Source: Escherichia coli
GTDB taxonomy: Bacteria > Pseudomonadota > Gammaproteobacteria > Enterobacterales > Enterobacteriaceae
DNA: 64,000 bases
Strand: one strand, 5' to 3'
NCBI RefSeq assembly: GCF_041886205.1
Contig: NZ_CP169029.1
Part shown: one piece after another, positions 14,901 through 18,405 of the stretch
Numbering within the stretch: the stretch's first letter is position 1
Layout: each line of letters opens with the position of its first letter
The notes under the pieces: model-generated
Told to the model about the DNA's origin: nothing
The model's database searches: none
What the model saw: the letters and a program-made list of their open reading frames with translations, nothing else
Translations under genes and position numbers: made by a program

Positions 14901-15110
14901 ATTTTGTGGCTCATGCATGTTTTACAGGCATTAAGCGACAAAAAGATCATATAACCTGTTCTGGAAAACGCTTGCGCAGCAAGAAGATTGCATGAAATAA
15001 AAACGAGCAGGGAAAAGTGGACCAAATGGTCAAAATTTACATTAAAACAACAAAAACAGAAGACAAAACATGTAATTTTTAGCACTTTCATAAAATTTAA
15101 AAGCATAATA

Positions 15111-15145
15111 CCAAAAATAAAAGGGCTAGAAATTAAAGCCCTTTA
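15111..15145 (-). terminator. Rho-independent terminator downstream of dapB
   Basis: Hairpin AAAGGGCTTTAATTTCTAGCCCTTT followed by a T-rich run on the minus strand. Confidence 0.55.
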
Positions 15146-15196
15146 TAATTAATAAATTAAATATGTTATTTTTACATCATCATAAACATGATGTGG

Positions 15197-16033
<837 letters not shown>

Positions 16034-16184
16034 TTAATTTGCATAGACCGTTTTCAGAGTAACCAGCGCATCGCTACGCCGCCAGCCAAAAACGCTGATA
16101 ATTAGAAATTAATGATAAACAGGGAGGGATATCAGTGAAAGGCATGAGTCGATGAATGACTGCATGCCGATAACATGTGACAGG

Positions 16185-17105
16185 TTATGGCACCAGAGCC
16201 AGCACCTCAGCTACCCACTGCTGGAAGCCTTTTACATTCAGATCCAATGCCACCTGTACATTGGCTGGTTTGCCCAGGCAACCGTCGATATCAACCATCG
16301 TCGTGCCTGAGGTAAATTCGCCTTGAGTTTCTACCGCGACAAAACACGGCTTGAGGGTGAATAAGTCCGGGCGCACCAGCCAGGCGATGGCGCAGAGATC
16401 GTGCATTCGCAGACCGCTTTGCATACTGCCGCTACGGTAGTGGCTAAACAGGGCGTGGAGCATTTTTCCGGTGCGATTCAACTCCGGCAAAGTAGCGAGA
16501 TAGTCAGGGGTTAATATTGCCTGATTGGTGACATCCAGACCGCACATGACAATTTCGATTCCGCTACGGAAGACACAGGCAGCCGCTTCTGGATCGGCAG
16601 CGATATTAAACTCGGCGTTTGGCGTACAGTTGCCGCGTCCGGCAGAACCGCCCATGATCACCAGACGGCGAATATGCGGTTTGCATTCCGGGCATTGTGA
16701 AAGTAACAGCGCAATATTGGTTAACGGGCCAATGGCCACCAGGGTAACAGGCTCTGGTGCACGCATCAGGGCATCCCGAATAGCCAGGAATGCTGGTATC
16801 TCCAGTGGCTTTCGGTTGTGCTCAACAAAGTCGTAGCCAGCCATTCCCGATTCGCCGTGCACAGATGCTGCATCACGCGGTGCGCGTACCAGCGGTACGG
16901 CTGCGCCCTGGGCGAGCGGAATCTCCGCATTCCAGAAATGCAGCAGTTGCAGGGCGTTGCGGGTGGTTTTCTCAACCGAGACATTACCCGCGACGGTGGT
17001 CATCAGTTGCAGGTCGAGTTCGGGGGCAAAAATCGCGGCGGCAATGGCGACGGCATCGTCAATGCCGGGGTCAGTATCGAGGAAGATAGGTATAAGTTTT
17101 GTCAT
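16185..17105 (-). CDS. rihC: Non-specific ribonucleoside hydrolase RihC
   Basis: 306-aa ORF with the inosine-uridine nucleoside hydrolase DTDPGIDD motif; N-terminus slightly differs from the K-12 sequence as remembered. Confidence 0.9.
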
Positions 17106-17124
17106 TACTGTCTCTCCTGGCTTG

Positions 17125-18333
17125 TTAATTGCTCATGGCTTTGAACTCATCGCTGCTGATACAGATATCCGAAATATCTTTATTCGTCACCAGACGCGGG
17201 CTGAGTTTATCGCCTTCAACAAACGGTACTAGCGGGCAAAATTCCCCTGGAGACGCTTTATCTTCCTGCCACTGAATTTCAATGGATTCCGGCTCCATGC
17301 CTGGTTTCTCTGACTGAATGACTGTGCGGATATCCGTGGTTAACTGAAATGGCTCACACCCCTCCACATCAGTAAAAGTCGGCGTCAGATGACCATTCTT
17401 ACGTTCCTGCAGATAAAAAATGCGGCCATCGTGATAGGAAGGAATTACGTAGCAGGTATACATTTTACCTTTACTTAGCACTGGCTGAAGATAACTTGAG
17501 CCGCTGTCGATCAATTCAACCTCTTTACCCTTCCAGCGATAAACGTCTATTCCGTGACTACAGCAACCGCCTCGCCAATGGCTGACGATCTGCTTATATT
17601 CTGCATCCGGCTCCGGCGAGGTGATTTCCTGATAAGACGCAGGCGCATCAACAAAACGTTGTGTTGAGGGATCGTAAAGCCAGGTTTGTTCGGGGATATT
17701 GGGTCCAGCGGGTAACTCTTGCGGAATGGAAAGATCCGGATAACCATCAAAATTAACATCCTCCCATTGAGGCGTAAAAATGCTACAAGTGCCGATAGAA
17801 GCAGTATATAAGGTCTGTATCGGTTTCCCATCACGATATAATTTTATTGCTGAAATGACCGGAACATTATTACAGTCGATCGCTTTGGTAGGGTCGTAAT
17901 CGTCATTCACTTCCGCCACCAGCACCAGATCAATGCCCGGATCGTTTTTGGGTTTGTTATAGTGAAGTGCTATGGGGAAATGGTGTTTTTTATCGGCTGA
18001 AGTCCATACACCTTTTATCTCAATCGGTGAAACTTCAGCATCCCATTGACCAGAAAGTGTCTGTGCGCGCTCCTCAAGAAGCAGCCGCTCAACCTGGAGA
18101 GATCCTCGCAGAATTAATCGCATTTTTCTCTGATTGCAGGGTTCATAGCAATAGCTACCATGAAGGTCGTTGTTAATCCGCGTAATATCGACACTTACCT
18201 GCTTACCCGCAATCGTCCCGGTATAATTTCGATCCCAGAACGAAAATTCAAGCTGCGAAGCGCCATTGGCCGCTCCCAAACAAAATACAAAAGCCAAAAA
18301 TCCCGCCAATCCATAAGCTATCTTGCTCATCAT
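17125..18333 (-). CDS. Hypothetical secreted protein (402 aa, signal peptide, Cys-containing); accessory insertion between ispH and rihC
   Basis: Intact ORF with GGAGG Shine-Dalgarno 7 bp upstream of a tandem ATG ATG start; N-terminal hydrophobic signal sequence [25 protein letters not shown]; no recognised family; as I remember K-12, ispH and rihC are separated by only a short spacer. Confidence 0.7.
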
Positions 18334-18359
18334 CCTTGCCTCCGCAGAAGAGTACAGCT

Positions 18360-18392
18360 AAAAAAAAACCAGCAACGAGTGTGCTGGTTTTT
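18360..18392 (-). terminator. Rho-independent terminator after ispH (potentially bidirectional)
   Basis: A9 - CCAGCAACGAGTGTGCTGG - T5 hairpin between the ispH stop and the start of the 402-aa gene. Confidence 0.6.
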
Positions 18393-18405
18393 GAATGATT
18401 AATCT

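Follow-up and report, generated by a model that had tools for sequence, protein, structure and literature searches.

The question raised by the ispH–rihC intergenic region of Escherichia coli is why some strains have a complete gene in a place where strain K-12 has only a short spacer: either the gene was gained by the few strains that carry it, or it was lost by the many that do not. The gene (hereafter gene X; positions 17125–18333, minus strand) lies in a stretch of 64,000 nucleotides from contig NZ_CP169029.1 of an E. coli genome (RefSeq assembly GCF_041886205.1), referred to here as the window. An initial annotation, made from the sequence alone, had described gene X as a lineage-specific accessory gene inserted into a conserved string of housekeeping genes, and its product as a secreted protein belonging to no recognised family. 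The present analysis established the identity, synteny and evolution of gene X, the export signal and fold of its product, and the homology of the latter to XAC2610, an immunity protein of Xanthomonas citri. The explanation put forward, which as a whole we consider nearly an even prospect, is that gene X is an ancestral enterobacterial gene that most E. coli lineages would have lost, and that it would specify an orphan periplasmic inhibitor of peptidoglycan hydrolases.

Gene X is rare in E. coli, yet far from unique. A survey was made of 5,426 complete E. coli genomes, searching for the region by megablast and for the insert alone by sensitive blastn. The ispH and rihC flanks were found in 5,425 of the genomes, and the insert was covered in just nine. 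The sensitive search returned the same nine (0.17%), with gene X always in the chromosome and always between ispH and rihC; it is missing from K-12 and from 99.8% of the complete genomes, in agreement with its description as an accessory gene. Nor is it a pseudogene, since all nine copies are annotated as intact coding sequences of 401 aa. The carriers, which came from pig, frog, goat, cattle and human sources on three continents, form two allele groups, one of five genomes at 99.9% identity or more and one of four at ∼97.5%. Gene X of the window is identical to that of LHM10-1, CP52E and ET201, and the window's rihC is identical solely to that of ET201 and 6EVA. In a wider protein collection, each E. 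coli allele of the protein was found on 195–361 contigs.

In the window, gene X is flanked at its 5′ side by ispH (18406–19356) and at its 3′ side by rihC (16185–17105), all three on the minus strand; the initial annotation had correctly placed them on one strand, leaving unstated which. Alignment with K-12 (blastn and junction alignments) showed that, where K-12 has 72 unrelated bp, the window has a segment of 1,313 bp (17093–18405, minus strand) that contains a terminator, gene X and the X–rihC spacer. The segment begins at the last ispH codon, where homology with K-12 ends, and extends to about codon 5 of rihC, where homology restarts; both junctions lie inside codons. The K-12 ispH–rihC spacing, described as short in the annotation, is indeed only 65 bp. 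No recognisable remnant of gene X was found in the 72-bp K-12 spacer, their sole likeness being a generic ribosome-binding site, and the K-12 terminator hairpin is unrelated to that of the X-bearing segment. The latter carries a single open reading frame (ORF). A search for insertion scars revealed no target-site duplication, terminal inverted repeats, mobility genes or tRNA/att site, only the terminator hairpin and repeats at chance level. The annotation was right in seeing no obvious mobile-element scars, as there are none of a transposon, an integrase or repeats.

The terms 'insertion' and 'lineage-specific' did not withstand comparison with other enterobacteria, where gene X is also found next to ispH. 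Salmonella enterica has the order ispH-X-rihC, with 69% amino acid identity over the full length of the protein; this gene (cluster P0005, with the legacy name 'nitrite reductase') is a true ortholog that shares position, strand, neighbours and domain architecture with gene X, although its ispH–X spacer is ∼120 bp longer than in the window. We take it to be STM0050 of strain LT2. It is common, with 4,762 distinct member sequences in its 90% cluster, as against the 0.17% of complete E. coli genomes that carry gene X. The same order occurs in E. albertii (89.5–91.5% identity to gene X of the window). Gene X was also found at the ispH site in Pseudocitrobacter faecalis (77% identity) and in one further enterobacterium (69%), while Citrobacter freundii and Enterobacter sp. 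show the order ispH-X, and Entomohabitans the order ispH-rihC-X. A peptide-pattern scan of genome contigs missed the Salmonella and Escherichia representatives, so absences in that scan are no evidence.

The synonymous divergence (dS) between the window and Salmonella was 1.22 for gene X and 1.09, 0.96 and 2.08 for fkpB, ispH and rihC, respectively. Gene X has therefore diverged about as much as its flanks, which fits orthologs split by speciation. In addition, the intrinsic terminator hairpin at the 3′-end of ispH (18364–18392, minus strand; AAAAACCAGCA-7 nt-TGCTGGTTTTT plus a T-run, with an 11-bp stem) is kept with gene X in all Escherichia carriers, in Pseudocitrobacter and in Salmonella (the hairpin upstream of gene X being AAAACCAGCACAnTnGTTGCTGGTTTTT). 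A tblastn search against 72,556 plasmids matched a single replicon, of 3.2 Mb and from Burkholderia; members of the family are essentially never found on plasmids. Shared synteny, a dS equal to that of the flanks and a conserved terminator together indicate that presence of the gene is the ancestral state. The simplest reading of these comparisons is that gene X has been just downstream of ispH since before the Escherichia/Salmonella split, and that the common E. coli allele is the product of loss or replacement, 1.3 kb having probably given way to 72 bp. The direction of the event would thus be the opposite of that first proposed: K-12-type E. coli would be the derived form, and the rare carriers would keep an old enterobacterial gene that is nearly universal in Salmonella and almost absent from E. 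coli. A recent acquisition, as the initial annotation had it, could draw on the rarity of gene X (9/5,426), on its GC content (46.2%, below the ∼55.5% of ispH and rihC), and on the fact that it moves with a divergent haplotype block within a K-12-like background. However, at least five further genera of enterobacteria have the gene at this position, and its flank-like dS, the terminator conserved across genera, the absence of duplications, inverted repeats or mobility genes, and the near absence of the family from plasmids all speak against acquisition; judged by synteny and dS, this reading is already contradicted, and we regard it as very improbable.

If a few E. coli lineages have retained gene X, its alleles appear to have been spread among them as mosaics by homologous recombination. 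No mismatches separate the window from K-12 across ∼6 kb of carB, as against 13–22 mismatches per 250 bp in rihC. The rihC haplotype of the window is confined to the five carriers of the first allele group (the next best genome is 97.5% identical), and the first ∼5 codons of rihC (MTKLI...) are part of the X-bearing haplotype, which is seen in carriers only. A third E. coli allele of gene X (locus L048, cluster P0002, e.g. KTE146) specifies a protein with 79% identity, between flanks with E. coli-grade similarity; its dS is ∼1.0 in the part coding for the N-terminal barrel described below, versus 0.16–0.25 in the rest of the gene. Within E. albertii, dS is 0.18 for gene X and 0.26 for rihC, versus 0.02–0.07 in the other neighbouring genes. 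Between the window and E. albertii, gene X is less divergent (dS 0.16–0.19) than either ispH (0.38–0.45) or rihC (0.33–0.38). The locus of Pseudocitrobacter faecalis (L049, 2457–3400) is 85–96% identical to that of E. coli L048 (4928–5900) over the spacer and the first ∼900 bp of gene X, the ispH–X spacer being almost identical, but identity is just 71–87% over ispH, rihC and the remaining 3′ third of gene X. These contrasts in divergence along the locus show that it carries old mosaic alleles, which homologous recombination has brought across the boundaries between species and between genera; they are evidence of inter-genus exchange of X alleles. The locus represents a small, clean case of recombination-driven diversity inside a string of core genes. 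Gene X is under purifying selection, yet evolves several times faster than its neighbours (ratio of non-synonymous to synonymous divergence, 0.17–0.31 versus 0.00–0.10). The hyper-polymorphism of the locus in E. coli and E. albertii is as expected for a gene taking part in antagonistic interactions.

A polymorphism was also seen in rihC itself. Its identity to the window copy is bimodal across the 5,425 E. coli genomes (95–99% in 2,892 of them, 90–95% in 2,528), and its dS relative to K-12 is 0.26, with values of 0.03–0.11 in neighbouring genes. This may stem from old haplotypes that are tied to whether gene X is present.

As to its product, gene X is predicted to specify a soluble, acidic, disulfide-bonded periplasmic protein of ∼43 kDa exported by the Sec pathway. 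The clear N-terminal signal peptide noted initially was confirmed as a Sec signal of the signal peptidase I (SPase I) type (aa 1–24; 18262–18333, minus strand), with K4, a hydrophobic core at residues 5–22 (mean Kyte-Doolittle value 2.08) and an A-N-G/A cleavage site. No lipobox was found: FVF-C18 does not fit, C18 is unconserved and the cleavage site (ANG/AS) is SPase I-like; every aligned homolog has a signal peptide, and none a conserved lipobox Cys. The mature protein has 378 aa (42.8 kDa, isoelectric point 4.85), and no further hydrophobic or transmembrane segment was found in it. It is rich in Cys and aromatic residues, as had been remarked (10 and 37, respectively); six of the 10 Cys are invariant, and two nearly so, across 49 homologs.

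Structure prediction by AlphaFold2 with a 49-sequence alignment gave a confident all-beta model (predicted local distance difference test score, pLDDT, 90; predicted template modelling score, pTM, 0.82), in which the mature protein would consist of three parts, all coordinates referring to the minus strand. The first (aa ∼25–145; 17899–18261) is an 8-stranded up-and-down beta-barrel with a streptavidin-like fold and an invariant C62/C66 pair; the predicted structure could be superposed on avidins as a closed 8-stranded meander. Variation within the protein is greatest in this barrel, of which there are two deep allelic forms. The second part (aa ∼146–330; 17344–17898), the most conserved, is an XAC2610-like domain that includes the core of family NF047539 (XAC2610_fam; aa 189–276; 17506–17769; E 7.5e-26, profile positions 2–88 of 89). 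A predicted Ca2+-binding loop, D192-V-N-F-D-G-Y-P-D200 (17734–17760), aligns with DINGDGHED of XAC2610 (residues 151–159), and its N194, F195, D196 and D200 are invariant in the 49 homologs. Close by is a near-invariant loop, L207-P-A-G-P-N-I-P214 (17692–17715), at the position of the XAC2610 inhibitory loop (residues 165–173), and a vicinal C257-C258 pair (17560–17565; motif WRxxCCxHG) is shared with XAC2610 (GDGCCIHV). The third part is a small beta-rich C-terminal domain (aa 331–402; 17128–17343) with invariant C366 and C391. Amino acid identity is 63.9–68.6% in the barrel versus 75–84% in the XAC2610-like core.

The protein is a member of an already catalogued family, contrary to the statement that it belonged to none. 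It matched NCBIfam NF047539 with 90.4 bits (curated cutoff 35), its only NCBIfam match. All 50 homologs, including P0001 (96% identical) and the same-locus orthologs, carry a precomputed assignment to PF27031 (DUF8339), and the membership of the gene X protein in PF27031 rests on these close relatives; a Pfam-A scan of the protein itself gave no match even at E ≤ 10, the copy used presumably predating PF27031. A single-sequence search of the PDB sequences yielded only noise. A family profile search reached PDB entry 4QTQ (XAC2610; E = 0.05), aligning the Ca2+ loop and the CC motif, and Foldseek, run with the model, ranked 4QTQ second with a probability of 1.0. In an exhaustive profile search, the ∼90-residue core was found in about 2,265 clusters (50% identity) with many architectures, mostly in proteins of ∼200 aa, the size of classical immunity proteins; 43 clusters fell at E ≤ 1e-30, the range that holds the full three-part architecture. 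Full-length members occur in Enterobacteriaceae, Pseudomonas, Burkholderia, Massilia, Comamonas, Asticcacaulis and others.

XAC2610 (X-Tfi(XAC2610); PDB 4QTQ) is the immunity protein of a bactericidal type IV secretion system (T4SS) of X. citri. It is a periplasmic lipoprotein that inhibits the glycoside hydrolase family 19 (GH19) peptidoglycan hydrolase XAC2609, by means of a Ca2+-stabilised fold and a loop inserted into the active site, where the catalytic Glu is contacted by Tyr170; the protein serves mainly to protect a cell from its own toxin, and has been compared with PliI (PMC10933484). The two proteins have in common the DxNxDGxxD Ca2+ loop, the CC-x-H motif and export to the periplasm (for gene X, by its predicted signal). 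They differ in length (402 aa versus 267 aa), gene X adding the avidin-like barrel and the C-terminal domain. Orphan XAC2610-like immunity genes have been proposed in Salmonella Typhi: t0732, in a type VI secretion system (T6SS) immunity islet, is XAC2610-related, has no cognate toxin in the genome, and is proposed to guard against the peptidoglycan-degrading effectors of competitors (PMC7400221). Unlike gene X, which stands alone among core genes, t0732 belongs to an array of orphan immunity genes, and its homologs elsewhere adjoin T6SS effectors. The closest functional analogy is with the lysozyme inhibitors Ivy, MliC/PliC, PliI and PliG, which are specified by single chromosomal genes with no partner toxin gene, are exported by Sec, and plug the active site of muramidases with a conserved loop; the gene X protein gave no sequence match, and no top-ranking structural match, with any of them.

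From its homology to XAC2610, its export signal and its disulfide content, we infer that the gene X protein may act alone in the periplasm to inhibit peptidoglycan glycoside hydrolases, binding them through its conserved LPAGPNIP/Ca2+ face, a proposal that is tentative and somewhat short of an even chance. Like XAC2610, it would bind such an enzyme and block its active site, in this case via the near-invariant LPAGPNIP loop beside the Ca2+ site. The putative target could be a lysozyme-like toxin that competitors inject, or muramidases of the host or of the cell itself, and the protein would protect the cell wall as an orphan factor that lacks a cognate toxin gene. If it does inhibit peptidoglycan hydrolases, it could add to the differences between Salmonella and E. 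coli in resistance to lysozyme-like toxins of competitors or hosts.

Several observations weigh against this proposal. Tyr170 of XAC2610 has no counterpart in the aligned LPAGPNIP loop, which has no aromatic residue, the 'GNY' of XAC2610 being an insertion; and gene X, with its soluble SPase I signal, does not specify a lipoprotein, unlike XAC2610 with its lipobox. Nor does gene X have an adjacent GH19/XVIPCD effector or a T4SS, sitting instead in a housekeeping string, and no effector, T4SS or T6SS gene adjoined it at 41 homologous loci outside E. coli, as judged with a crude ORF caller and disregarding spurious long ORFs in GC-rich genomes. The recurrent neighbours at those loci were genes for a major facilitator superfamily transporter, a GGDEF-EAL protein, a TonB receptor, a short-chain dehydrogenase/reductase, a hydrolase and an AI-2E transporter. 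The LPAGPNIP loop is near-invariant across Proteobacteria, unlike toxin–immunity interfaces, which co-evolve fast, a pattern that could instead suit a conserved partner with a housekeeping role. No functional precedent exists for two of the three domains, 99.8% of E. coli manage without the gene, and the literature holds no biochemical or genetic data on this subfamily: a search for DUF8339 returned no papers, one for STM0050 just KEGG pathway identifiers and an unrelated instrument code, and no well-characterised function of gene X was found. The lack of the Tyr, of a lipid anchor and of a partner toxin, together with the near-invariant loop, leaves room for two rival functions, one centred on endogenous hydrolases and the other on binding by the barrel.

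According to the first, the protein would regulate or inhibit the cell's own peptidoglycan hydrolases (e.g. lytic transglycosylases), with no role in defence against foreign toxins. Ivy may control MltB in Pseudomonas in this way. The solitary position of gene X in a housekeeping context in many genera is in keeping with this, as is the near invariance of LPAGPNIP and nearby motifs from Enterobacteriaceae to Burkholderia, which suggests a conserved target; XAC2610, too, mainly guards against an enzyme of its own cell, preventing cis-intoxication (PMC10933484). However, gene X is dispensable in 99.8% of E. coli, its hyper-polymorphism and inter-genus allele exchange would be unusual for a housekeeping regulator, and no partner was identified; this alternative is unlikely. 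An equally unlikely one is that the XAC2610-like core is a mere Ca2+-binding scaffold and that the activity lies elsewhere and is unrelated to peptidoglycan hydrolases, for example in an avidin-like barrel binding a ligand or peptide (as in a periplasmic binding or scavenging protein) or in a beta-barrel protease inhibitor. The missing key tyrosine and the occurrence of the core in many different architectures would agree with a scaffold. Against this, conservation is lowest in the barrel, the family-invariant residues are concentrated in the XAC2610-like domain, and no avidin-type ligand-binding motif was identified.

A broader version of the inhibitor proposal, which we hold to be quite improbable, would see in ispH-X-rihC a long-lived cross-species polymorphism and in gene X a broad-spectrum periplasmic anti-muramidase armour with a swappable specificity barrel. 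The XAC2610-like domain would plug the enzyme. The barrel, whose deeply divergent alleles have passed between Escherichia and Pseudocitrobacter, would serve to determine specificity or to escape counter-measures; presence or absence in E. coli would reflect a balance of cost and benefit under contact-dependent warfare. If true, gene X would define a new class of immunity factor, multi-domain, stand-alone and with no linked toxin. Finally, the legacy name nitrite reductase, under which orthologs from E. coli, Salmonella and Pseudomonas appear in many GenBank entries, is effectively refuted and has next to no chance of being right, as the Pfam-A scan was empty and the sole NCBIfam match was XAC2610_fam (no NirS, NirK or NirB domain match in either collection), the sequence has no CxxCH heme motif, the fold is that of a barrel plus an XAC2610-like domain, and RefSeq has already renamed the protein 'XAC2610-related protein' (WP_000034172.1).

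The family is already catalogued, and nothing in these data establishes a new mechanism. What is gained is a corrected polarity of the event, a domain architecture, evidence for inter-genus mosaic alleles, and a concrete hypothesis on function in which a misleading name gives way to a putative stand-alone periplasmic relative of a T4SS immunity protein.

The local signals around gene X agreed with the initial description throughout. The intact ORF of 402 aa between ispH and rihC has a tandem ATG-ATG start at 18333/18330 (the second being the RefSeq start, giving 401 aa), preceded by a strong ribosome-binding site, GGAGG (18339–18343, minus strand), 5 nt upstream of the first ATG. The start codon is ∼30 bp from the ispH terminator hairpin, and the stop codon is 19 nt from the ATG of rihC (20 bp in the initial annotation). 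A terminator scan of the X–rihC gap detected none, making co-transcription of rihC with gene X plausible. Scanning for promoters between the ispH terminator and the start of gene X gave no convincing candidate, the counts being those expected from shuffled sequences, and an Rfam search of window positions 16000–19500 found no RNA family.

Some differences were noted at related loci and elsewhere in the window. In Comamonas testosteroni SWCO2 (L034, 3682–5903), two DUF8339 genes (430 and 433 aa as called here) lie in tandem. No other of the 41 loci has such a duplication, and immunity genes typically form tandem arrays. In E. albertii, an extra DUF805 gene (119–121 aa; L053, 10169–10534, and the same place in L054 and L055) lies between rihC and dapB, and is missing from the E. 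coli window and from K-12. Divergence between the window and K-12 shows a spike in the dapB–carA intergenic region (15000–15250; 22 mismatches per 250 bp), and reaches 33 mismatches per 250 bp at 24750–25000, adjoining the edge of K-12 homology at 25084. Positions 25303–31727 contain an intact chaperone-usher fimbrial operon (an unassigned 473-aa ORF, a YehD-like major subunit, an StcB-like chaperone, an 816-aa usher and a second unassigned ORF, of 319 aa), in whose position K-12 has only IS1A and a truncated 'fimbrial family protein' pseudogene. A segment with no counterpart in the compared K-12 stretch (34137–38184) comprises three ORFs, specifying a 509-aa sulfatase-family protein (arylsulfatase/choline-sulfatase models, below cutoff), a 253-aa PRK11528-like protein and a 426-aa protein with a weak match to the IS1/IS1595 zinc finger. 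It is followed, at 38568–39936, by an insertion sequence with an IS4-family transposase (372-aa ORF, 38632–39750) that is 99.6% identical to IS421 of K-12 and inverted relative to the surrounding synteny.

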